In this document: positions 8,576 to 54,810 of the stretch, one piece after another
Layout: every line of letters starts with the position of its first letter
Position numbering within the stretch: position 1 is the stretch's first letter
Assembly: GCA_964549935.1 (NCBI GenBank)
Contig: CAZJVT010000005.1
Span: 1 to 56,306, forward strand
Length of the DNA stretch: 56,306 nt
Source of the DNA: an uncultured Candidatus Saccharibacteria bacterium
GTDB taxonomy: Bacteria > Patescibacteriota > Minisyncoccia > UBA6257 > 1-14-0-10-44-23
Direction of reading: 5' to 3'
Position numbers and translations under genes: made by a program
The notes under the pieces: model-generated
Told to the model about the DNA's origin: nothing
Seen by the model: the letters and a program-made list of their open reading frames with translations, nothing else
The model's database searches: none

Positions 8576-10285
8576 ATGGTTGAAATCCCCTCAGAACGAC
8601 TGAAGAAAATCCTCGTTGACGACGCGATCGTCACCGAGGATCGTTTTGACGAGCTCGCTGCCGAAGCACGCCGTATCGGCCAGGGACCGGCTAGCATCCT
8701 CATCAGCAAGAACATCATGACTGATGAGTACTATATGAACTTGCTTTCTCGTTTTTTCAGCGTACCAATCGCAACGCTTGAAGCGGGAACAACCGACGAG
8801 GAGGCGCTTCGTCTACTAACCGAGGACTATGCCCGTGAGAAACGCGTTGCTATCTTCAAGAAAGAGGTTGATGGGACACTGGACGTCGCCATGGAAGACC
8901 CGAGCGACCTCACGACAATTGAATACCTGGAAACAAAGTTCCAGACGAAGGTAAAGCCTTACCTTGTTTCGATGGCTAACCTCGCTCGCATCTTCGCTTT
9001 CTACGGTAAAGAGCAGGTGGAGGGCTTTCGTAAAATCATCCAAGAAAACATCCAAGCCTCTCTACAGCTCTCCGGCAAAAAAGACTCGGAAGCCGCTGTT
9101 CAGGTTCCAATCATCGCGATCACCGACAACATCATCTCCTACGCAATCTCGCTACGCGCCTCCGATATTCACATCGAAGCGCTGGAGACTGAAATTCTCG
9201 TCCGATACCGCATCGACGGTATTTTACATGAAATCATCCGCATCCAGAAAGAAATCCATCCTGCTATCGTTGCTCGCTTCAAGATTCTCTCCGGTATGAA
9301 GCTCGACGAGCACACGAATCCGCAAGACGGCCGTTTTCACTATAAAATCAGCGGCGAAAGCGTCGATATCCGTGTTTCAATCTTGCCGACAATGTACGGT
9401 GAAAAGGTTGAATTACGTTTGCTTGTCGGTGCCGGCCAGATTCTTTCCTTCGAAGAGCTTGGCATGTCCCCTGAAATTATCAAAGAACTCACGGCGAATG
9501 TCACCAAAAGTTACGGCATGGTGCTCGTGACCGGTCCGACCGGCTCTGGTAAAAGCACAACGCTCTACTCAATCCTTCACCTCATCAACCGCCCGGAAGT
9601 CAATATCATCACGGTTGAAGACCCTATCGAATACGATATGAAATACGTCAACCAAACGCAGATCAACGAACAGGCTGGTACCAGCTTCGCCAGTGCTCTC
9701 CGAGCAATTTTGCGTCAGGACCCGAATGTCATCATGGTCGGTGAAATCCGTGACGTTGAAACCGCAGAAATCTCCGTCCACGCCGCTTTGACGGGCCACT
9801 TACTACTCTCCAGCTTGCACACCAATGACGCGCCAACCGCAATCCCCCGCATGATCGATATGCACGTAGCACCGTTCCTTCTCTCGGCGGTGCTTAACGC
9901 TATTCTCGCGCAACGTCTTGTGCGTAAGATTTGCTATGACTGCCTCTACTCCTATCCGACACCCCTTGAAATCAAGAAGATTATCGAGGAACAGTTCAAA
10001 GACCTTGGCATCGGCGATCAAACACAGGTGCCCAAAACGCTCTTTAAGGGAAAGGGGTGCTTAAGCTGCGGTCAAACCGGTTACCGTGGACGCTTCGGCA
10101 TTTATGAACTGCTTACAATGACCGAGTCTCTGCGCACCGCAATCGTTGACCCTTCCTTCAGTCTTGAGAAGTTACGCCAATTAGCCAGAACAAACGGGAT
10201 GAAAACGATGTTCGAAGATGGACTGGCGAAGGCTGGTCAAGGCAAGACATCCATCGAAGAAGTTTTGCGCGTTATCCGGGAATAA
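8576..10285 (+). CDS. pilB: Type IV pilus assembly ATPase PilB/GspE family
   Basis: Walker A GPTGSGKST, Asp/His boxes, and a C-terminal CxxC...CxxC (CYDC, CLSC) zinc motif. Confidence 0.9.
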   Translation: MVEIPSERLKKILVDDAIVTEDRFDELAAEARRIGQGPASILISKNIMTDEYYMNLLSRFFSVPIATLEAGTTDEEALRLLTEDYAREKRVAIFKKEVDGTLDVAMEDPSDLTTIEYLETKFQTKVKPYLVSMANLARIFAFYGKEQVEGFRKIIQENIQASLQLSGKKDSEAAVQVPIIAITDNIISYAISLRASDIHIEALETEILVRYRIDGILHEIIRIQKEIHPAIVARFKILSGMKLDEHTNPQDGRFHYKISGESVDIRVSILPTMYGEKVELRLLVGAGQILSFEELGMSPEIIKELTANVTKSYGMVLVTGPTGSGKSTTLYSILHLINRPEVNIITVEDPIEYDMKYVNQTQINEQAGTSFASALRAILRQDPNVIMVGEIRDVETAEISVHAALTGHLLLSSLHTNDAPTAIPRMIDMHVAPFLLSAVLNAILAQRLVRKICYDCLYSYPTPLEIKKIIEEQFKDLGIGDQTQVPKTLFKGKGCLSCGQTGYRGRFGIYELLTMTESLRTAIVDPSFSLEKLRQLARTNGMKTMFEDGLAKAGQGKTSIEEVLRVIRE

Positions 10286-10420: not shown

Positions 10421-11629
10421 ATGAAATTTCACTACACGGCGACAGGTCCCGACAACAAAGTGATCGAGGGCAATGAAGAGGCTGCCAGCACAGTCGAGCT
10501 TCTCGGCTTGCTTGCAAGCCGCAATCTAAAGCCGGTTTCTGTAAAACAACTAAAAGAAGCGGTTGCAGGCTCGGCGCATGGCGCTCTCCGGACTGCAATT
10601 ACCGTCAACGACAAAATCTTTCTTACGAAGTACCTTGCTATCATGCTCAAGGTCGGCATCGACCTTTTCCAGGCAATCAATATTTTGATTAGCGACTTTA
10701 AGCAGCCTGGGCTGCGCGCGCTTTTGACGGAAATCCGAGACAATCTTGAGCGCGGACAGCCTTTTTACAGCACCTTCGCGCACTACCCACGTTATTTTTC
10801 AAACGTATTCGTCAACCTCGTGAAGGCGGGCGAAGCCTCTGGCAACCTGGACACTGTTTTCGAAGGTCTCTCAATCTCCTTCGGTAAAGAAAAAGAATTG
10901 CGCAGCAAAATCAAGGCTGCCCTCGTCTACCCGCTGATGCTTTTCAGCATGTCGATAGTTATTTTAATCTTGCTGACCACTTTTGCCCTGCCTAAATTAG
11001 CGAATATTTTTAGCGGTGGCGATTTTACTCCCCCGCTCTTTACCCGTATCGTCTTTAGCGTCGGACTTTTTATCAACCAAAATATCTGGTTCCTTATCGG
11101 CGGCATCATCGTTTTGGTTACAGTGCTCGTAGTAACGCTGCGAACGACGGGCGGCAAAAACTTCCTTAACAACGTGATGCTGCGCGCACCGATTGTAAAA
11201 TCAATAAAATACAATCTTGCCTTGCAACGTTTCGCGACTACTTTGTCTTCGCTTTTAAAAGCCGGTGTTCCCATTCTTGAGGCTCTGCGAATTACCGCTG
11301 ACACCGTTGGACATCCCGGCCTAACAACGAGCTTAAAACGAATCGCCGATGAAGGCATAGCCCGGGGACTAACGCTCGGCGACGCTTTTAGGCGAGAGAC
11401 GAGTTTCCCGCTCGTGGTTACTAACCTTGTGGCAATTTCTGAAAAAGCCGGACACCTGGACGAAATCCTGGAGACGCTGGGTCGTTTTTATGAAAGTGAA
11501 ATCGACGCATCAATCAAGAGCGCAATCACCTTTATTGAGCCTATTCTCCTGTTACTTATCGGTCTCGTAATCGGTGGAATCGCGATGGCAATCATTGTTC
11601 CGATCTATCAGCTCACAAGTCAATTCTAA
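10421..11629 (+). CDS. pilC: Type IV pilus platform protein PilC/GspF family
   Basis: 402 aa with two GspF-like repeats and 3 TM helices. Confidence 0.85.
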   Translation: MKFHYTATGPDNKVIEGNEEAASTVELLGLLASRNLKPVSVKQLKEAVAGSAHGALRTAITVNDKIFLTKYLAIMLKVGIDLFQAINILISDFKQPGLRALLTEIRDNLERGQPFYSTFAHYPRYFSNVFVNLVKAGEASGNLDTVFEGLSISFGKEKELRSKIKAALVYPLMLFSMSIVILILLTTFALPKLANIFSGGDFTPPLFTRIVFSVGLFINQNIWFLIGGIIVLVTVLVVTLRTTGGKNFLNNVMLRAPIVKSIKYNLALQRFATTLSSLLKAGVPILEALRITADTVGHPGLTTSLKRIADEGIARGLTLGDAFRRETSFPLVVTNLVAISEKAGHLDEILETLGRFYESEIDASIKSAITFIEPILLLLIGLVIGGIAMAIIVPIYQLTSQF

Positions 11630-23927: not shown

Positions 23928-24851
23928 CTACTTGTTGGTCGCCGCACCCACGTAGTCGGCGATGCGGTTGCGCAGGTAGTTGCTCTTGTTGGGATCGCGG
24001 AGCCATGCCTGCTCGAGCCTTGCATGCTTCGCAGCCACACGAACGGCCTTGAGGCGTTGATCCTCTGTCAGGCACAGGAAGTGCGGATCATGTGCCAGCC
24101 CCGTGAGCAATGCAACGGGGTCTCGGCAGCTGCGCGGTTCGAATGCCGGCACCGTCTCGACATGCCCGTTGCCGTTCACCGCGCTGGTGGAATCTGGCTC
24201 CGTTGTTTCGGGTTCGGGAGCAGCCTCTACCTCGACCGGAGTCTCAGCGAGAGGCGGTTCGGTAGGCGTCGGTTCTGCACTTGGCGCAGCCTCGACGATT
24301 GGATCTTGTACTGCAGGCGGAGCTACCACTTCTTCCGCCCGATCCGTAGTCGCCACCACATCGCTGGGTGGCGGCCCTTCTTCGCGCTGCCTTCTGACAT
24401 CGGCCGCACGTTGTACCTGCTCCTCTTCCTGGCGCCGCTCTTCACGGACCAGCTCGAGACAGTCCTTGATCATCTCTTCTGCGAGAGAGATCCCCTTCTC
24501 GCTCTTGATTCGAGCGAAGGCGACTTGGACGGCGAGATCCCCGTCTGGCATGCTCGGCTCGCCGTAGCGCCGGACGAGATTGAGAGCTTCGTCCAGAGAG
24601 ATCCCAACCACCACCGCCTGCTCTTCCGCGGCACGTCGCCGCGCAGCGGCTTGGGCGTTCATCCTGGCAAACTTCGCCAGGATGTTCTCCCAGCGCAAGT
24701 CCTCCCTCAACCCCCGTAGCCGAGCGTCGCTGGCCAGGAGGGCGACCCAGTTACAACTGCAGCCATCATCCGGATACAGCATTCGTCGTCTCCTTTCCGG
24801 CCACCACTTCGGCCTAGATTCAAGCCTATGCTTCAAAATAAACTCGGTCAA
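23928..24851 (-). CDS. G+C-rich hypothetical protein with a central Pro/Glu/Ala/Thr-rich linker
   Basis: 307-aa ORF with a TTG start as drawn. Codons are GC-rich at the third position, and a G+C-rich hairpin with a T-run lies downstream (23852-23880). Confidence 0.5.
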   Translation of the reverse strand: MTEFILKHRLESRPKWWPERRRRMLYPDDGCSCNWVALLASDARLRGLREDLRWENILAKFARMNAQAAARRRAAEEQAVVVGISLDEALNLVRRYGEPSMPDGDLAVQVAFARIKSEKGISLAEEMIKDCLELVREERRQEEEQVQRAADVRRQREEGPPPSDVVATTDRAEEVVAPPAVQDPIVEAAPSAEPTPTEPPLAETPVEVEAAPEPETTEPDSTSAVNGNGHVETVPAFEPRSCRDPVALLTGLAHDPHFLCLTEDQRLKAVRVAAKHARLEQAWLRDPNKSNYLRNRIADYVGAATNK

Positions 24852-25021
24852 CTTGTAGAAAAAATATAAAATTGTCTTATATAAAATGATTCACCGCTCC
24901 GAGCAACAAGCTGGAGCGGTGAAGCGAGGGAACTTATAATTTTTAGAGACGCTTCCCTCTACGCTGCGTCTTTCTTCTTCTACGGCCAGGTCATACCGGC
25001 CTCCTTTATGTAGCTACTGCG

Positions 25022-26056
25022 CTACTTCTTCGAGCCCTTGCGACTGCGGCGAGGAACACCCCCACCGATCATCTTCCCGAGCTGCGCCAGGCGCTGCCTG
25101 GCATCATGCCCGGCCGCAACCTCCTTCTTGAGCTCACGGACGATCTTCTCGTCGGCCTTTGCTCGCGCTCGAAGAGCGAGCAGGTCCGCCTCGCACTTGA
25201 CCAGAGCCGCCTTGAGAGCCGGCTCACGATGCTGCGCGAGGACGGCGGACTGCCACTCCTCGCTGCTGCGATCCTCCGCCGACTTCACCTTGGCCTCAGC
25301 CGTATCGCGGATCTTCTTGATCTCCGCGAGCGTCTGATCGAGCCTGGCCTTCATACCGGCAAGCTCCTCCCGAGCACGACCGAGTTCGCTGGAGAGCTTC
25401 TCCTGCTCGTCTCGCGAGCGGCCGACCGCCGCCCTTGCCTCCTCCAACTGCTGATGAAGCTCGTCAGCTCGTGCGGTTGCACTCGCCTCCTTACCTCGAA
25501 CGTCAGAGAGAGAAGCTGTCAGACCTCCGACCTCCTCCGTACGCCGCTGAAGCTCATTGCGCAAGCCACGAAGGTCTCCCTCCAGGCTCACGATGCGCTT
25601 CTTGGCGACATCGAGATCGGTGCGAATTCTGATCGTCTCCTCCGGGTTGAGCGCTGCGAGCTTCTTCTCCAGCTCCTCAGCCTTAGCCCAGGATTCGATG
25701 ACCATCTGATTGAGCTGGTCGCGCTCCTGCTCCTCCGTCCTGCAAGCTGGCGGCTTCAAGCCAACCAGTCGGTGAGCCGTTCGCCCCAGATCAGCTGGGT
25801 CCGTGGGTCCGTAGTAATGGACCCGTCGCTCCTGAGCCTTTCGGCGCAGAGCTGCGACCTGCCCATCGCTGAGCTCACTGCAGAGGAGCAGGTGCCCGGT
25901 GCTGCCGGGCAGGCCTGCACGAAGACGACTAGGGAGGTCATCGTCGAGAGGCCAGATGGTGATTCCCTTGCTATCGGGAAACCACCTCCGAATATCGCCA
26001 GGTGGTACCCCGACGACCAACATGGATCGAGGGCTACCGGGATTAACTGAAGACAT
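25022..26056 (-). CDS. G+C-rich coiled-coil protein with a roughly 100-aa N-terminal alpha/beta domain (DUF2325-like?)
   Basis: ATG preceded by GGAGGAAG. About 240 aa of E/K/R/L heptad-like sequence. GAG/AAG/CTC codon bias supports this strand. Confidence 0.6.
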   Translation of the reverse strand: MSSVNPGSPRSMLVVGVPPGDIRRWFPDSKGITIWPLDDDLPSRLRAGLPGSTGHLLLCSELSDGQVAALRRKAQERRVHYYGPTDPADLGRTAHRLVGLKPPACRTEEQERDQLNQMVIESWAKAEELEKKLAALNPEETIRIRTDLDVAKKRIVSLEGDLRGLRNELQRRTEEVGGLTASLSDVRGKEASATARADELHQQLEEARAAVGRSRDEQEKLSSELGRAREELAGMKARLDQTLAEIKKIRDTAEAKVKSAEDRSSEEWQSAVLAQHREPALKAALVKCEADLLALRARAKADEKIVRELKKEVAAGHDARQRLAQLGKMIGGGVPRRSRKGSKK

Positions 26057-43006: not shown

Positions 43007-43110
43007 ATATCTTATTGTACTCGTTAATTATGAAGATTCAAAGGTTGGTACTCGGGTGCCCGGCCGCCTTGAGGCGGCAACGGGCACCCGCGCGATTCGG
43101 CTTTCGCCGA

Positions 43111-43299
43111 TTACTCCGACTTGGGAGGGGCAGCAGTAGGCCCATCCGCCTGACACTTCGGGCAGCTTTCGGCCAGCGGCGCGCCGAGATCATCGAACTC
43201 CCGCCCTGCTGCAGCCTGACACTTGCAGACCTGTTCGCAACCCATCGTCCACTCTCCTCTTGAGGAGCCCTCGCTGGTACAAATAAACCGTTTACTCAT
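43111..43299 (-). CDS. G+C-rich small Cys-rich protein (62 aa, 6 Cys including CKC and CPKC)
   Basis: ATG preceded by GGGGAGGG. A G+C-rich nested hairpin lies downstream (43053-43092). Confidence 0.4.
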   Translation of the reverse strand: MSKRFICTSEGSSRGEWTMGCEQVCKCQAAAGREFDDLGAPLAESCPKCQADGPTAAPPKSE

Positions 43300-43527
43300 A
43301 CCAGCGACCCTCCCCGAGAAAAAAGAAAACCGCTCGGGGAGCGGTGGTATGAGAGACGTTATACAACAAAACTACCGCGTCCGAGGGTTGAGAGTAAATG
43401 CGCGATAAAAGAAAACGAAATTGAGTTGTACGGCCGGGCGAGAATTCATATATGAAAAGAATAAGCGAAATACAAAATCCCGTCAAACTATCCTCCCTCC
43501 CCCGCACTACACAATATCCGGACCTTG

Positions 43528-43551
43528 TTACAGTGTACTAGTACACTGTAA
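43528..43551. promoter_or_regulatory. 24-nt perfect palindrome TTACAGTGTACTAGTACACTGTAA (trp-operator-like), remote copy
   Basis: Shares 26 nt (ccttgttacagtgtactagtacactg) with the site at 54785-54810 in inverted orientation. On the minus strand it overlaps a GTTACT-17-TACACT promoter-like pattern. Confidence 0.5.
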
Positions 43552-43688
43552 CGTAGTAACTTATATGAAAATACTTCGGCGAGCTCAGCATAAATCGAAA
43601 GGGTCTCCTTCAGCCGGAGCTGAAGGAGTCCCTTCGCGCGGGGTAGCTCCCCCAATCTCACCACTCTCGTAGGTGACACGCCTTTCGT

Positions 43689-44504
43689 TTAGAAACTCAG
43701 CGTCACTGCGACGCCGAAGACCTCCTGGTGCTGCCGGTCCCGCTCCTGATACGGACCGAACTCTTTGACGAAGACCTCGGCGCTCACACCGTCCGAGATC
43801 TTGCACTCCAGCCCGATCCGCCCAGTGAGCGTCCAGCCCGTATCCACGACCTTGGCAATGCCGCAGTCGTAGAGCGCGCTGACACCGACCTTGAGCGAAA
43901 CCGGCCCGACGACCTTGACGCTGTAATCCGCGCCAAGGGTCGCCGTAGGACGCCGCCCGAGTTCCGGAAGTAGCCCGAGACGACACTCGACCTGGGCGTA
44001 CGGCTTGAGTTTGCCCGCACTTCCAAAGTCAAAGTCCTTGCCGAACTTGAGCCGAGGGATCAGGATGTCTCCCCGACTCTGCGACTCCGGCAGGAGGTCC
44101 AGATACAGCAGATCGGCGGTCACCCACCAACTCCGCTCGAACTTCCAAGTATGGCCGACCGTGAAGTCCACCTCGTCGGACGACGTCTTCACGCCACCTG
44201 ACTCCTGAAGTCCAGTGGACCACCAGATGCCGACGTGCCAGCCGCTCGGCTCGCTCACGAGAAGCTCGGTCTGAACTGCTGGCTCGTCGCGCAGCAGTCC
44301 GCCGAAGTACCGCACGTCCTTGCTCACGTAGGTGCTCGTGAGCCTCACCTTCCACGACTCGGCCGTCTCCTTGACGACCGGGGGTTGCGCGACGACGGAG
44401 TTGACCGCCGCCGCAAGATCACTCTTCATCTCCTGCGCCTGCGCGACCGTCGCGCTGACATACGAGAGAAGCACGAACAGGACATAAGATAGTGACCGGG
44501 ACAT
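43689..44504 (-). CDS. G+C-rich outer-membrane-type beta-barrel protein (Gcw_chp-like?), copy 1
   Basis: Signal peptide MSRSLSYVLFVLLSYVSATVAQAQ, alternating-hydrophobic strands, and a C-terminal VTLSF with terminal Phe. Start taken at the ATG at 44504. Confidence 0.6.
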   Translation of the reverse strand: MSRSLSYVLFVLLSYVSATVAQAQEMKSDLAAAVNSVVAQPPVVKETAESWKVRLTSTYVSKDVRYFGGLLRDEPAVQTELLVSEPSGWHVGIWWSTGLQESGGVKTSSDEVDFTVGHTWKFERSWWVTADLLYLDLLPESQSRGDILIPRLKFGKDFDFGSAGKLKPYAQVECRLGLLPELGRRPTATLGADYSVKVVGPVSLKVGVSALYDCGIAKVVDTGWTLTGRIGLECKISDGVSAEVFVKEFGPYQERDRQHQEVFGVAVTLSF

Positions 44505-44569
44505 GGGAACTCGCTTTCCGGGGCTTCTACCCCTTCCCTGTGAATGAGCTACTATCAACAGCGCCTACC

Positions 44570-44584
44570 TTGACGCTTTTGTCA
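44570..44584. promoter_or_regulatory. Inverted repeat TTGAC-N6-GTCA in the divergent intergenic region (candidate operator)
   Basis: ttgacgcttttgtca. The equivalent TTGAC-N5-GTCAA lies at 47298-47312 in the second module. Confidence 0.35.
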
Positions 44585-44650
44585 GATTAGTATAGATTAA
44601 TGGAGTGGCCAACGGTGCCATAGGGTGCTTGTCGCCACCACATACAATTA

Positions 44651-44685
44651 TTAGAAATTAGTAATTGGAAATTAGAAATTTCAAA
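44651..44685. repeat. Heptamer tandem repeat (TTAGAAA-like x5)
   Basis: ttagaaa ttagtaa ttggaaa ttagaaa tttcaaa, immediately before the ATG at 44689. Confidence 0.85.
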
Positions 44686-44688
44686 AAC

Positions 44689-45444
44689 ATGTACCAGGAA
44701 GTTTTTGAGGGTCTCGGTCTCTCCCCTAACGAGGCGAAGATTTACGAAACGCTCGTCGTGCACGGCGAATTAGGTGTGAGTGAAATCGCCACACGCTCAC
44801 AAATCCACCGCCGCAACGCCTACGACGCAATTCGCCGCCTCATCGACAAAGGATTGTGTTTTGAAATTATTTCGAAAAAAGAAAATTTATATAACGCAGT
44901 TGATCCGGGGAAGCTCTTAGAACTCACTGAAGAAAAACGCCAGTCAATTGAAAATATTTTGCCGGATTTAAATAAAAAGTTTCACCACCGAGCTTCAACC
45001 GAAGAGGCGTTTATCTACAAAGGCTACGAAGGCCAGAAAAATATCTGGCGAGAGATCCTACGCGTTGGCCAGGATATTTATATCATTGGTGCCAAAGCAC
45101 AGTGGTTTGATGCAAAACTTGATGCTGCTCGCGATGCTTTTTATCGCGAAACCAAACGCAAAAAAATGACCTTTCGCTTGCTCCTCGACCAAGAGGTGCG
45201 AGAACGGCTTCCTAATTTTACGGAGACTTATCCCGGACTGATGGAGCACCGCTGGCTGCCGAAACAGTCTTCAACAAGCGCGATCGTCGTGACCTTTGGC
45301 GACTACGTCGTGATGTATGCTGGTGTCGGAATTATGAAAATGGACGATAACACCGTATTCTTTGTCATCAAAAGTGCTGCTCTCGCCGAAGGCTATCGTG
45401 CCTGGTTTAAAAATATGTGGGAACAGAGTAAGGAAAATAAATAA
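44689..45444 (+). CDS. TrmB-family transcriptional regulator, copy 1
   Basis: N-terminal winged HTH: GLSPNEAKIYETLVVHGELGVSEIATRSQIHRRNAYDAIRRLIDKGL. ATG at 44689 is preferred over the TTG at 44665. Confidence 0.7.
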   Translation: MYQEVFEGLGLSPNEAKIYETLVVHGELGVSEIATRSQIHRRNAYDAIRRLIDKGLCFEIISKKENLYNAVDPGKLLELTEEKRQSIENILPDLNKKFHHRASTEEAFIYKGYEGQKNIWREILRVGQDIYIIGAKAQWFDAKLDAARDAFYRETKRKKMTFRLLLDQEVRERLPNFTETYPGLMEHRWLPKQSSTSAIVVTFGDYVVMYAGVGIMKMDDNTVFFVIKSAALAEGYRAWFKNMWEQSKENK

Positions 45445-45492
45445 TCTTCACTCAACCATCTGCACGGATAGTTAAATACGAGCCATGAGATC

Positions 45493-46134
45493 TCAAGCGG
45501 CTGAACTCCTAAGCTGGGCCGCAGTTTCGGCGCTTAGCAAATGCAAAAGTTCTTTGGCGCTGCGATCTTCGATAACCCGTGGCTTGCCGTCTACAAATTT
45601 TTTAGCGTCATTCACGTTACAAATTTTGCTGTCTGGCCGCAAAATACCTCGCGCTACCAAATCGTCGAGCATCACGTGGCAATCGGGACAGGGATGCAAT
45701 GCGTCATCGGCCTGATCCACATCTAAACCGCGCACGACACGCGATGTATTAGTCTCACGCGATACAGTCACGATACCGATGATAATCGGGTACGGATGCC
45801 CGGCCTGCGCAGCTCCAATGGCGTTACGTTCAGCGCAGCGTTTGTATACACCTTCGACCGGTATGTCTTTGGGCTTAAAATTATGCCCGGAAAATTCCTT
45901 GTACTCGCCGCTCTGCCCGTCCATACTAGGGAACCATGCAAGCACCGCACACCCTACTTTAAACGGCCGCTCTTTACGGTGCGAGACTGCATTGTCACGC
46001 GCTAGGGCGGCCTTTTCAATTAATTCATCTCGGTGGCGATCAAAATAAGCGAGGTGCTCCTGCATCTGCTCGGGAGTAAGTTTTGCATACTCCGGTCGCT
46101 CCAAAGAATGAACCGCCTCCATATTCCCAGTCAT
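45493..46134 (-). CDS. Cytidine/deoxycytidylate deaminase-family zinc enzyme
   Basis: CAERNAI (C/H-A-E) and PCPDC zinc-ligand motifs. N- and C-terminal extensions are atypical. Confidence 0.55.
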   Translation of the reverse strand: MTGNMEAVHSLERPEYAKLTPEQMQEHLAYFDRHRDELIEKAALARDNAVSHRKERPFKVGCAVLAWFPSMDGQSGEYKEFSGHNFKPKDIPVEGVYKRCAERNAIGAAQAGHPYPIIIGIVTVSRETNTSRVVRGLDVDQADDALHPCPDCHVMLDDLVARGILRPDSKICNVNDAKKFVDGKPRVIEDRSAKELLHLLSAETAAQLRSSAA

Positions 46135-46195
46135 AGATTCATACTAAAATAATTTTCCTTTCTTGTTAAGTGAAACGCGTATGCAAAACGAGTAC

Positions 46196-46221
46196 GGGGC
46201 GGTCACAGCTGTGACCGCCCC
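46196..46221 (-). terminator. 26-nt perfect palindromic G+C-rich hairpin downstream of beta-barrel gene 2
   Basis: ggggcggtcacag/ctgtgaccgcccc. Confidence 0.5.
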
Positions 46222-46298
46222 GCGCTTGAAGTAGCTCCTTCATCTCACCACTACGCAGGTGACTCGCCTTTCGTTTACGTTGCCCATGTTGCTGATGC

Positions 46299-47111
46299 TC
46301 AGAAGTTGAGCGTCAGCGAGACGTCTAGGCTGCCGACGTCCTTGCGGTCCTCGATGGTGTGACCCATCCAGTAACGCTCGTAGCCGATGCCGGCCACCAC
46401 GGACTTGCTGTCATTGAGCGGGACATCGAGTCCCACCCGCCAGCGCAGCAGGTTGCCGCTCGGTGTCTCGCTCGTCCCGTTGTCGTAGACGTACTTCACG
46501 GTGTTCGTGAGCGCCGCCCCGCCGATGCCGAGGTCGATGCTGTGGCTGACGCCGACGGTCGTGATCCACCGGTCCAACCCCATAGGCATCAGAATCGCGT
46601 CCTCGAGCTTGATACTGGGCGTGAGCGTCCCGCCCGTACCCAAGTCGAACGTCGTCGAGACCACGATGGACGGGTCGAGGATGTCCCCATCGCCATCACC
46701 GAGCTCGTATAGGTCGAAGTAGCCGACCGCCGCGTCGAACCGGAAGGTCCGACCCAGAAGATCGAACTCCTTCCCGTAGCCGATGGTGTAGTCCACCTCG
46801 TCGGCGAAGTCGGCGTCGAAGTCCTTGTACGAACCGCCCGAATGCCAGAAATCGAGCGAGAACCCGCAGGGCAACAATGCGAACACATCCTGCTGGGGCG
46901 CCGAACCGTTGGCGTAACCGTTGCCGGTCACGTAGTCGGTCTTGTACGTCAGCTTCAGCGAAACGGCCGGCGTCCAGGGGTCCTTCGACTCCTGCGTGAC
47001 GACGGAGTCGACCGCCGCCTGCAGATCTGACGACTGTCCGTCCTCGCTGCGCGCCACGTTGGCGCACAGACCAAAGACTGCCAGAACGACGAAAACGATT
47101 GCCTTCCTCAT
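46299..47111 (-). CDS. G+C-rich outer-membrane-type beta-barrel protein (Gcw_chp-like?), copy 2
   Basis: Signal peptide MRKAIVFVVLAVFGLCANVARS and C-terminal SLTLNF. Shares SDL.AAV.SVV.Q, DEVD(F/Y)T(V/I)G and GDIL.P with copy 1. RBS is GGGAG. Confidence 0.65.
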   Translation of the reverse strand: MRKAIVFVVLAVFGLCANVARSEDGQSSDLQAAVDSVVTQESKDPWTPAVSLKLTYKTDYVTGNGYANGSAPQQDVFALLPCGFSLDFWHSGGSYKDFDADFADEVDYTIGYGKEFDLLGRTFRFDAAVGYFDLYELGDGDGDILDPSIVVSTTFDLGTGGTLTPSIKLEDAILMPMGLDRWITTVGVSHSIDLGIGGAALTNTVKYVYDNGTSETPSGNLLRWRVGLDVPLNDSKSVVAGIGYERYWMGHTIEDRKDVGSLDVSLTLNF

Positions 47112-47297
47112 AAGTCACCCATCTCCCTTCCCTGGCTTTGTCTTTGCGCGGCCTCATTGGCCACGATCTTAGACTTAGCCACCCCGAACACGATTGATTT
47201 CAGTCGAGGTAGCGAGGTTTTAGAGCTATTTAGACTCATTCCCCGATACCCGGACTGAAATCTCTTTTCAACGTTCTCCAATCAGTTTAATCTATTT

Positions 47298-47312
47298 TTG
47301 ACAAATAGTCAA
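47298..47312. promoter_or_regulatory. Inverted repeat TTGAC-N5-GTCAA (candidate operator; also the -35 of a minus-strand TTGACT-17-TAAACT promoter)
   Basis: ttgacaaatagtcaa. The minus-strand -10 TAAACT lies at 47284-47289. Confidence 0.35.
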
Positions 47313-47397
47313 ATTAGTTTCAAAATAAATATATACAAACTTGCTTTTTTTGCCTTAAATGCTTTATAATAATGACATATATTTTTTTGACACTATT

Positions 47398-48144
47398 ATG
47401 GACATTCAGAATGAGCTCAAAAAACTAGGCCTAAAGAAATCGGAGAGCAAACTTTATCTGTATTTGCTCGAGAAAGGAGCCTCTACCCCGCCGAACATAG
47501 CCAAAGGCACTGGTATCGCCCGAACAAACTGCTACAACCTCTTAAGGGGGCTTGAAAATAAGGGCATGGTCCAAGTCCAGGGTGCGCAAAAGAGCAAAGC
47601 CTACGTCGCCCGTGATCCGGCCACGCTCCTGACCGGCTTAGAGCAAAGAATGGAAGCGGCCAAACGCATCGTGCCAGAACTTCGCGATTTTTATACCACG
47701 CAGAAGAATAAGCCAAAAATCAGATTCTTTAGCGGCTGGGATGAGGTAAAAGAGTTATACCTCTTAACACTCGAAACTGAAAAACTTTTTGCCGTCGGCT
47801 CGACCGAGACAATCGCAAAAATTGATAAGAAATTCCTTGAGTCATATTGGCATGAGCTTGCGAGCCGGAAAATCATCTTTGACAGCGTGCTGATGGCCAG
47901 CGCTAAATCGAAAACGGCTCTCGAAATAAAAGCCGTTGCGGGAGCTTTGCGCACCGACAGGTTTCTACCAGAAAGGTTCGGTGACGAGCCGATGGACATG
48001 TTCATCTGGAACGACAACATCGCTCTAATCGCCCTCTCTGATCCTGTTTTCGGAACGCTCATTACCGATGCTGCTCTGGTTCGCGTACTGAAAATCATGT
48101 TCGGTGCGCTCTGGGAAGAGCTCGGAAGACGAAATGATAATTAG
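47398..48144 (+). CDS. TrmB-family transcriptional regulator, copy 2
   Basis: GLKKSESKLYLYLLEKGASTPPNIAKGTGIARTNCYNLLRGLENKGMV. ATG at 47398, with TTGCTT-18-TATAAT upstream (47341-47370). Confidence 0.7.
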   Translation: MDIQNELKKLGLKKSESKLYLYLLEKGASTPPNIAKGTGIARTNCYNLLRGLENKGMVQVQGAQKSKAYVARDPATLLTGLEQRMEAAKRIVPELRDFYTTQKNKPKIRFFSGWDEVKELYLLTLETEKLFAVGSTETIAKIDKKFLESYWHELASRKIIFDSVLMASAKSKTALEIKAVAGALRTDRFLPERFGDEPMDMFIWNDNIALIALSDPVFGTLITDAALVRVLKIMFGALWEELGRRNDN

Positions 48145-54772: not shown

Positions 54773-54810
54773 TTGACTATGTATCAGTGTACTAGTACAC
54801 TGTAACAAGG
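54773..54810 (+). promoter_or_regulatory. Promoter (TTGACT-17-TACACT) overlapped by a trp-operator-like palindrome CAGTGTACTAGTACACTG
   Basis: -35 at 54773-54778, -10 at 54796-54801, palindrome at 54785-54802. Lies about 70 nt upstream of the TrpR/YerC-like gene. Confidence 0.5.

Follow-up and report, generated by a model that had tools for sequence, protein, structure and literature searches.

The window considered here, meaning the whole stretch of 56,306 nucleotides that was analysed (contig CAZJVT010000005.1), carries two divergent gene pairs, called modules A and B. In each module, a gene for a predicted outer-membrane-type beta-barrel protein (barrel A or barrel B) faces a gene for a TrmB-like regulator (TrmB-A or TrmB-B). 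The balance of the evidence leans slightly towards reading the modules as two ancient paralogous units, each consisting of a TrmB-like factor and a divergent, Sec-exported, single-chain 12-stranded barrel channel, in a host belonging to the Candidate Phyla Radiation (CPR). Barrels of the outer-membrane protein (OMP) type are unexpected in such a host, as CPR bacteria are thought to have no outer membrane. What is new here is that an already described superfamily of putative porins turns up in a type of cell where it would not be expected, together with a dedicated and conserved regulatory architecture. The searchable literature gave nothing on Gcw_chp or porins in Parcubacteria, nor any report of OMP-type barrels in CPR bacteria.

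Predicted fold and family of the barrel proteins

Barrels A and B are paralogs which share 28% identity over their full length (BLASTP, E 6e-23). Both carry an N-terminal Sec signal peptide, whose cleavage is read from the two sequences between MSRSLSYVLFVLLSYVSATVAQA and QE and between MRKAIVFVVLAVFGLCANVARS and ED; a signal peptide is also found in the homologs. At the other end, both have a C-terminal beta-signal closed by an aromatic residue, Phe, which is kept in most homologs and replaced by Leu in some. The AlphaFold2 models, obtained from an alignment of 9 sequences, are all-beta, with a mean predicted local distance difference test score (pLDDT) of 76 for A and 70 for B and values above 85 for most strands. 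Besides the helix of the signal peptide and a second, short helix near the N-terminus, each model contains 12 long strands. One face of the strands is hydrophobic (mean hydropathy +1.65 in A and +1.00 in B), whereas the other is polar (−1.04 and −0.73) and holds most of the charged residues. In a barrel of this width the hydrophobic face must point outward, which suggests a lipid-embedded protein. On these models, both proteins are predicted to be outer-membrane-type 12-stranded beta-barrels, closed, even-stranded, and surrounded by a lipid-facing hydrophobic belt.

Comparison of the two models with the PDB by Foldseek returned outer-membrane barrels only, including OmpG, NanC, KdgM, VhGalP, FapF, PcoB, and autotransporter beta-domains. 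The target-normalised TM-scores reach 0.65–0.79 for the 12-stranded KdgM/NanC/VhGalP group, and the hydrophobic-substrate channels FadL and TodX are among the matches of barrel B. The predicted fold and size agree with those of KdgM/NanC/VhGalP, OmpG, and FapF, the last of which likewise combines an N-terminal helix with a 12-stranded barrel. However, those proteins sit in proteobacterial outer membranes, where they are assembled by the beta-barrel assembly machinery (BAM), and they have no sequence-level relation to the window barrels: the structural alignments with PDB barrels show 9–14% identity, and a PDB sequence search gave no sequence-level relative of the barrel.

The original prediction had described a paralogous pair with signal peptides and the C-termini VTLSF and LTLNF, features that are read directly from the sequence, and had counted roughly 12 amphipathic beta-strands in each protein. 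The strand count is borne out by the 12 strands of each AlphaFold2 model and by the two-faced alternation of hydropathy. Among the checks it had proposed, structure prediction and searches with profile hidden Markov models have been run; a barrel is predicted, and all its Foldseek matches are outer-membrane barrels. All the features it described are present where it placed them, and their coordinates are collected in Table 1.

Table 1. Features of the two modules and further copies of the 3′ RNA motif (window positions unless a locus is named)
Feature	Position	Strand	Description
Barrel A	43689..44504	-	271 aa, signal peptide, SDLxAAVxSVV helix, C-terminus VTLSF; type-A subfamily; predicted 12-stranded beta-barrel
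Barrel B	46299..47111	-	270 aa, paralog of A, C-terminus LTLNF; type-B subfamily; predicted 12-stranded beta-barrel
TrmB-like regulator A	44689..45444	+	N-terminal winged helix-turn-helix, uncharacterised C-terminal domain of ~150 aa
TrmB-like regulator B	47398..48144	+	Paralog of regulator A
Operator-like block	44605..44641		37 bp, GTGGTGG..C(C/A)TATGG..TTGGCCAC, between trmB-A and barrel A
Promoter-like region of barrel A	44568..44594	-	-10-like TATACT(AA), then GCGTCAAG inverted-repeat segment
Divergent promoter-like sites	47284..47326		Overlap palindrome TTGAC-N5-GTCAA (47298-47312)
Barrel B 5′ leader	47112..47285	-	~160 nt, two long helices; CAGGGAAGGG tract at 3′ end
3′ RNA element of barrel A	43582..43691	-	Closing helix, hairpin 1, hairpin 2, terminator-like hairpin
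3′ RNA element of barrel B	46169..46277	-	Same motif; 13-bp terminator hairpin at 46194-46223
Further 3′ motif copies	L004 10806-10915; L006 9693-9802, 10814-10923; L016-L135, L142-L204		L016-L135 and L142-L204 metagenomic/viral
Intervening open reading frame	45493..46134	-	213 aa, faint cytidine/dCMP-deaminase-like matches only

The relation of the barrels to known families is visible with profiles rather than with the curated thresholds. Barrel A matches PF09694 with 22.8 bits (cut-off 24; E 1.1e-4) over residues 51–132 only, and TIGR02001, the TorF family putative porin model, with 19.6 bits (cut-off 47.15). Barrel B gives no PF09694 match at E≤1 and no TIGR02001 match. Word-indexed searches of 5.8 billion proteins yielded few close homologs, only 5 for A and 2 for B, and an exhaustive HMMER search with a profile of the CPR clade reached 676 clusters at E≤1e-3, 321 of them at E≤1e-10. 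Among 46 sampled relatives, PF09694 is matched by 21 (best E 1.8e-13) and TIGR02001 by 16 (E≤0.01). Three proteins with precomputed PF09694 matches (P0015, P0157, and P0158) are recovered, P0015 with E 7.5e-37 to the CPR-clade profile, so that homology to bona fide PF09694 members is found by profile search. Because the profile extends to so many clusters, and 21 and 16 of the 46 relatives match the two family models, the window barrels are placed, by sequence comparison, as a divergent branch of the Gcw_chp/TorF putative-porin superfamily. The resemblance to Gcw_chp noted in the original prediction was a correct lead to real homology; formal membership does not follow from it, the scores being below threshold.

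With the members of Gcw_chp/TorF the window proteins share a length of ~240–270 aa, a signal peptide, a predicted small beta-barrel, and profile E-values down to 1e-37. Gly, Asp, Pro, and Tyr positions are invariant across the family. The window proteins differ from these members in their SDLxAAVxSVV helix, in their CPR genomes, and in their pairing with a TrmB-like regulator. This helix lies just after the signal peptide, is common to both subfamilies, and is absent from the next relatives. To our knowledge, the Gcw_chp/TorF family has no experimentally established function.

The DNA coding for the helix (44386-44420 and 46993-47027) is 86% identical over 35 nt in paralogs that are otherwise 28% identical, which points to gene conversion or to a constraint on the nucleotide sequence itself. 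Two further G+C-rich open reading frames (ORFs) of the window, at 23928-24851 and 25022-26056, were considered as additional barrels and rejected, as they code for charged coiled-coil proteins (hhalign probability 0.1%). These two ORFs (23928-26056, minus strand, GC ~0.62) encode 307 and 344 aa without a Pfam match, highly charged and of coiled-coil or low-complexity character.

Host lineage, synteny, and age of the modules

A scan of the GTDB representatives with the type-B profile found a type-B gene in a single reference genome, the metagenome-assembled genome (MAG) Candidatus Harrisonbacteria bacterium nzgw427, on a contig of 601,890 bp. The window proteins are 89% (ClpP), 86.5% (NusA), 80% (H+-PPase), 65% (TyrRS), and 64% (trigger factor) identical to those of nzgw427. 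By these protein identities, the window is assigned to CPR/Patescibacteria as a Harrisonbacteria-like relative of this MAG. Its gene content is CPR-like, with signal peptidase I, FtsA/FtsZ, a split transketolase, GAPDH, RecG, and a Mur ligase. In its type IV pilus locus, which has pilins, PilB, and PilC, no secretin was found. Genes for outer-membrane biogenesis were found neither in the window nor in the 20-kb flanks of two related loci (L004 and L006), about 100 kb of DNA of the lineage in all. The monoderm-type background described in the original prediction from the pilus without secretin and the missing outer-membrane biogenesis genes holds for the window. It has been reported that CPR bacteria are placed in a monoderm clade that has lost porins and outer-membrane tethers, and one cultured CPR bacterium has been described as being without an outer membrane.

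The gene order of the window, nusA - H+-PPase - tig - clpP - TrmB - barrel B ... TrmB - barrel A ... tyrS - Mur ligase, recurs in the nzgw427 MAG and in a JGI (Joint Genome Institute) contig of 633,618 bp, and a shorter Logan contig (L002) has tig - clpP - TrmB - barrel A. Contamination or chimerism is ruled out by the same synteny in independent assemblies. The orthologs are intact, with identities to the window barrels of 47–48% for A and 53–61% for B, whereas the regulators are 57–90% identical to their orthologs (TrmB-A 76–90%); in these alignments, the barrels evolve faster than their regulators. The homology noted beyond the coding sequences could be taken as a sign of a recent duplication. 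This view does not hold: as both paralog types have orthologs in the same neighbourhood of the relatives with ~600-kb contigs, the duplication is ancient and both copies are maintained.

The base composition of the barrel genes could also recall a recent horizontal acquisition, from a Gram-negative donor or as a phage moron, with little or no function in the host. The barrels have a GC content of 0.625 compared with 0.51 for the window, and at third codon positions (GC3) the values are 0.80–0.87 compared with 0.50–0.73 in the regulators and housekeeping genes; moreover, each barrel forms an autonomous promoter-gene-terminator unit and is followed by an RNA motif (described below) otherwise typical of temperate phages. 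However, intact orthologs of both types, 47–64% identical, occur at the same chromosomal position in several independent assemblies, the nearest family relatives are themselves found on CPR-like contigs, and the invariant residue positions of the family are kept. Since the orthologs also have an excess of total G+C, this excess points to a maintained property, such as the codon bias of a highly expressed gene, and not to a fresh transfer. A recent acquisition is accordingly regarded as very improbable.

Divergent pairs of a TrmB-like gene and a barrel gene also occur in more distant relatives, on two CPR-like contigs, L013 (barrel P0012) and L141 (barrel P0159, ~29% identity). In L140, a gene for an extracytoplasmic function (ECF)-type sigma factor faces a distant barrel homolog instead of TrmB. 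In the JGI relative (L006), the stretch that separates TrmB-B from barrel B has two inserted genes (8822-9690), one for an ECF-type protein with sigma70_r4 and the other an ORF of 111 aa, which carry their own copy of the 3′ RNA motif and a terminator. As sigma genes take the place of the regulator, or stand beside it, in L140 and L006, different regulator classes appear to have been swapped in front of the barrel family.

Between the two modules of the window, the minus-strand ORF of 213 aa begins ~35 nt past the 3′ RNA element and terminator of barrel B. It is not part of the conserved system, because the relatives have no counterpart between the modules; L004 has there, instead, a RelB/YafQ pair, a third TrmB, and an asparaginase. 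On the other side of module A, 680 nt separate barrel A from tyrS (43007-43688) without a convincing ORF, and the small ORFs which the relatives have between barrel A and tyrS find no counterpart in this gap. It contains a terminator-like hairpin on the minus strand (43329-43345). A perfect palindrome of 26 nt, GTTACAGTGTACTAGTACACTGTAAC, is found in the window at 43527-43552, inside this gap, and at 54781-54806; L004 has it at 10903-10930 and, in part, near 140-161. The window and the Harrisonbacteria MAG have the palindrome in identical form, with at least two copies per genome fragment, and it may be either a site bound by a global regulator or a palindromic element of the dispersed kind.

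Regulators, intergenic regions, and RNA elements

The two regulators are 22% identical (E 3e-16) and score 56.6 and 59.4 bits with the PF01978 TrmB model, for which the cut-off is 25.6, so that a TrmB-family regulator does face each barrel, as originally predicted. The similarity is confined mainly to the N-terminal part. The NCBIfam equivalog models of TrmB and TrmBL1 give 23–37 bits against cut-offs of 500–650, with mostly N-terminal rather than full-length matches, and the PDB match to the nearest solved relative, TrmBL2, covers residues ~8–81 only. The sugar-binding C-terminal domain of TrmB was not detected in the window regulators. With TrmB, TrmBL1, and TrmBL2 of the Thermococcales they share the N-terminal winged-helix TrmB domain; they differ from these archaeal proteins in their bacterial (CPR) host and in that the DNA-binding domain alone is similar. 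TrmB proteins are local regulators with palindromic operators near promoters, and the archaeal sites are of the TGM/TACT type, from which the candidate operator of the window differs.

TrmB-like regulators are expanded in these genomes, with three per 20-kb locus in L004 (11589-12682) and L013 (1274-5426). The extra TrmB of L004 faces a 68-aa ORF and the asparaginase, with a lone TTGGCCACTC element; the 68-aa ORF was considered as a barrel remnant and rejected for lack of similarity. In L013, a TrmB-like regulator faces a protein of 480 aa that has no match in Pfam, and next comes an OPT oligopeptide transporter. The expansion hints at a general role in the control of uptake or envelope genes.

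In the type-A intergenic region, the block of 37 bp occurs exactly once per type-A module in 7 loci and nowhere else in them, with barrels down to ~30% identity. Being located between the divergent starts, and given the high conservation of TrmB-A, it is a candidate TrmB-A operator that would overlap both promoters. About 10 nt past the block, the 7 type-A-like intergenic regions have TATACTAA, followed by an inverted repeat containing GCGTCAAG. In the window, this repeat is the TTGAC-N6-GTCA sequence at 44570-44584. Its partner arm shifts side and spacing among species, and because of this variation a 5′-terminal RNA hairpin fits the repeat at least as well as an operator. The segment from 44568 to 44594 is probably either a promoter-proximal region or the 5′-terminal hairpin of the barrel-A transcript.

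TTGAC-N5/6-GTCA repeats occur at 3 sites in the window (0.72 expected). They had been described as a feature shared by the modules; they are indeed present in both, but they are not homologous, and their placement with respect to the promoters differs between the two modules. In the type-B region, the palindrome overlaps consensus-like divergent promoters, as had been proposed, with TTGACT-17-TAAACT on the minus strand and TTGACA-17-CAAAAT on the plus strand; it is not conserved in L004. A second feature that had been noted, the upstream tract CAGGGAAGGG, occurs exactly twice in the window (0.05 expected), each time upstream of a barrel ATG and on the sense strand. The tract does precede both barrels, but the orthologous loci do not conserve it.

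Downstream of the predicted promoter, barrel B has a 5′ leader that three species conserve, with counterparts in L004 (9826-10000) and L006 (9838-10000), and compensatory changes affect 12 of its 42 predicted pairs. No match to the leader was found in Rfam 15, either at the gathering score or at E≤5. The type-B leader is regarded as a cis-regulatory RNA candidate.

The best nucleotide match between the modules lies behind the barrel genes, at 43643-43691 and 46231-46277 (86% over 49 nt, E 3.5e-9). Apart from this 3′ element and the CAGGGAAGGG 10-mer, the non-coding parts of the modules have no significant nucleotide similarity. The element is composed of a closing helix (GAAAGG/CCUUUC), a first hairpin (UCACC-loop-GGUGA), a second hairpin with the loop GAGCUA, whose stem GGGG/CCCC in A is replaced by the compensatory GAAG/CUUC in B, and a terminator-like hairpin of variable sequence. 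In the window, it marks the 3′ ends of the predicted transcripts of both barrel genes, directly before the terminators.

The original prediction had found this conserved 3′ flank, which is real on alignment, and had counted it as part of the homology of the modules. It could then be non-coding sequence left over from the duplication, and its rank as the strongest nucleotide match, as well as its start at the stop codon in module A, would agree with such an origin. However, with proteins only 28% identical, neutral flanks would have been erased long ago. The distribution of the element also differs from that of the modules. It follows all three type-B genes, the type-A gene of the window only, and the unrelated 111-aa ORF of L006, and it was not found in the four type-A orthologs whose 3′ flanks were read. 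In addition, the same core and covarying hairpin recur at more than a hundred other loci. A remnant of duplication is hardly credible in view of these data, and the flank is better described as a separate, widespread RNA motif.

An 18-base core of the motif was found at ≥120 loci in public metagenomes, mostly as the extended motif CG.GUCACCUGCG.AGUGGUGAG with a hairpin. The consensus is CG.GUCACCU.CG(N1-2)AGUGGUGAG; behind it comes a covarying hairpin, the loop of which has GC(U/A). The second hairpin is present in 56 of 63 distinct copies, with 36 different stems around a loop containing GC(U/A), and strong hairpins were counted in 38 of the 63 copies, compared with a mean of 14 after shuffling. 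In IMG/VR there are 63 matches, 55 of which have the extended motif, a share that speaks against unrelated chance matches, and many are on viral contigs of 35–56 kb, a size typical of whole phage genomes. The genes downstream of the motif code for ParB-like, replication-initiator O-like, Mu-type transposase, RdgC-like, and RecE-like proteins. To judge from these neighbours, the motif, which occurs at more than 100 distinct metagenomic and viral loci, appears to reside mainly in early operons of temperate phages. In Pseudomonas phage Epa5 (NC_052964, near 18700), a close variant that departs from the core at two positions lies between two ORFs that have no annotation.

Rfam 15 gave no match to the 3′ element at the gathering score or at E≤5, nor any at the motif positions of 28 metagenomic loci, and nothing was found in the literature on the sequence of the motif. 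From its sequence and predicted pairing, it looks like an undescribed RNA class. With the put sites of phage HK022 and the nut sites of lambda it has in common a compact two-hairpin RNA, in the phage copies a place just past divergent early promoters or between early genes, and in the window copies a place immediately before a terminator. It differs in having no sequence similarity to the put sites of HK022, and a downstream terminator accompanies only about a quarter of the copies. The put site putR has been reported downstream of cro in HK022; a search that tolerated 3 mismatches found no copy of the motif in HK022, nor did a reading of the region downstream of cro, and membership in the put family was rejected. 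A strict rule of motif followed by terminator was also rejected, since terminator-like hairpins lie upstream in 26 and downstream in 27 of 100 cases. Only the spacing of the downstream ones, mostly 20–55 nt away in about one-fifth of the copies, is suggestive. One possibility is that the motif acts as a put- or nut-like elongation modifier, another that it is an RNA processing or stability element.

Possible location and role of the barrels

In the proposed mechanism, the TrmB-like protein would bind the conserved block over the divergent promoters and would repress or activate barrel expression in response to a ligand sensed by its C-terminal domain. Once induced, the barrel may be abundant, as suggested by the extreme GC3 that is kept in the orthologs. 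It would then be exported by Sec and would insert, independently of BAM, into a bilayer outside the cytoplasmic membrane of the cell itself; since a single membrane without BAM is assumed for these organisms, folding would have to take place in some other bilayer. A Gram-negative partner is considered the most plausible recipient, with its outer membrane or the contact zone as the target and a nutrient or solute channel as the possible function, a proposal that is tentative and carries more doubt than confidence.

Several points weigh against the paralogous-channel reading and its proposed target. By sequence, neither barrel protein reaches the curated thresholds of Pfam and NCBIfam. The fold is predicted from an alignment of few sequences, and the case for TrmB binding to the 37-bp block consists of position and conservation. 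We know of no established precedent for a single-chain OMP-type barrel that inserts from outside into a foreign outer membrane bearing lipopolysaccharide, and the retained C-terminal Phe beta-signal fits BAM-dependent assembly better. Finally, the lineage may have a cryptic outer membrane, which is compatible with an absence of genes read over ~100 kb.

This last point leads to a different explanation, according to which the cells have an unrecognised outer membrane or lipid layer and the barrels reside there as ordinary porins, their assembly being the work of a BAM-like machine with genes in another part of the genome. The classic OMP features that have been kept (signal peptide, 12 strands, and C-terminal Phe) agree with it, as do the conservation and vertical inheritance of both genes; we know of no image of a cell from this lineage, and the absence of outer-membrane genes covers only ~100 kb of sequence. 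Conversely, CPR bacteria have been described as monoderms that lost porins and outer-membrane tethers, no outer-membrane biogenesis gene occurs in the window or in the 20-kb flanks of L004 and L006, and the pilus is without a secretin. The ~600-kb contigs of the relatives also seem small for organisms keeping a second membrane. Resident porins are therefore judged rather unlikely, while being the strongest competitor of the paralogous-channel reading.

Less probable still is that the barrels are exported without a stable channel role, as a toxin or pore-former aimed at competitors or the host, an adhesin-like surface protein, or a carrier of hydrophobic ligands that scavenges lipids. Such a role would suit genes under tight local control, each with a repressor-like protein of its own and one with a structured leader, and the lower conservation of the barrels (47–61% compared with 57–90% for the regulators) is a usual trait of surface or conflict proteins; the channels FadL and TodX, among the structural matches of barrel B, would fit a hydrophobic ligand. 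However, the hydrophobic outer face is unbroken over all 12 strands, which argues for a lipid-embedded protein, and in structure the barrels come closest to small porins that are monomeric. The genes conserved next to them include none for a toxin, immunity, or secretion partner.

In its widest form, the proposal is that CPR bacteria without an outer membrane of their own insert regulated OMP-type porins, independently of BAM, into a Gram-negative partner for metabolite scavenging at the episymbiotic interface, or else are cryptic diderms, and that the same loci reveal an undescribed RNA class of phage early operons. Taken together, this is a possible but doubtful conclusion.

The two-hairpin motif of phage early operons is of independent interest to RNA and phage biologists. 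The modules also offer parts that can be tested: a conserved candidate operator, two dedicated regulators, a structured leader, and small proteins fit for bilayer electrophysiology. CPR/Patescibacteria are regarded as monoderm and host-dependent, and the exchange of metabolites with their partners is an open question. Conserved and regulated OMP-type barrels in such organisms force a choice, as either some CPR bacteria have an outer lipid layer or the barrels are placed in a foreign membrane. The former, if true, would bear on the models of outer-membrane loss in Terrabacteria. The latter would represent a new mode of BAM-independent barrel insertion and would provide a molecular handle on episymbiosis.

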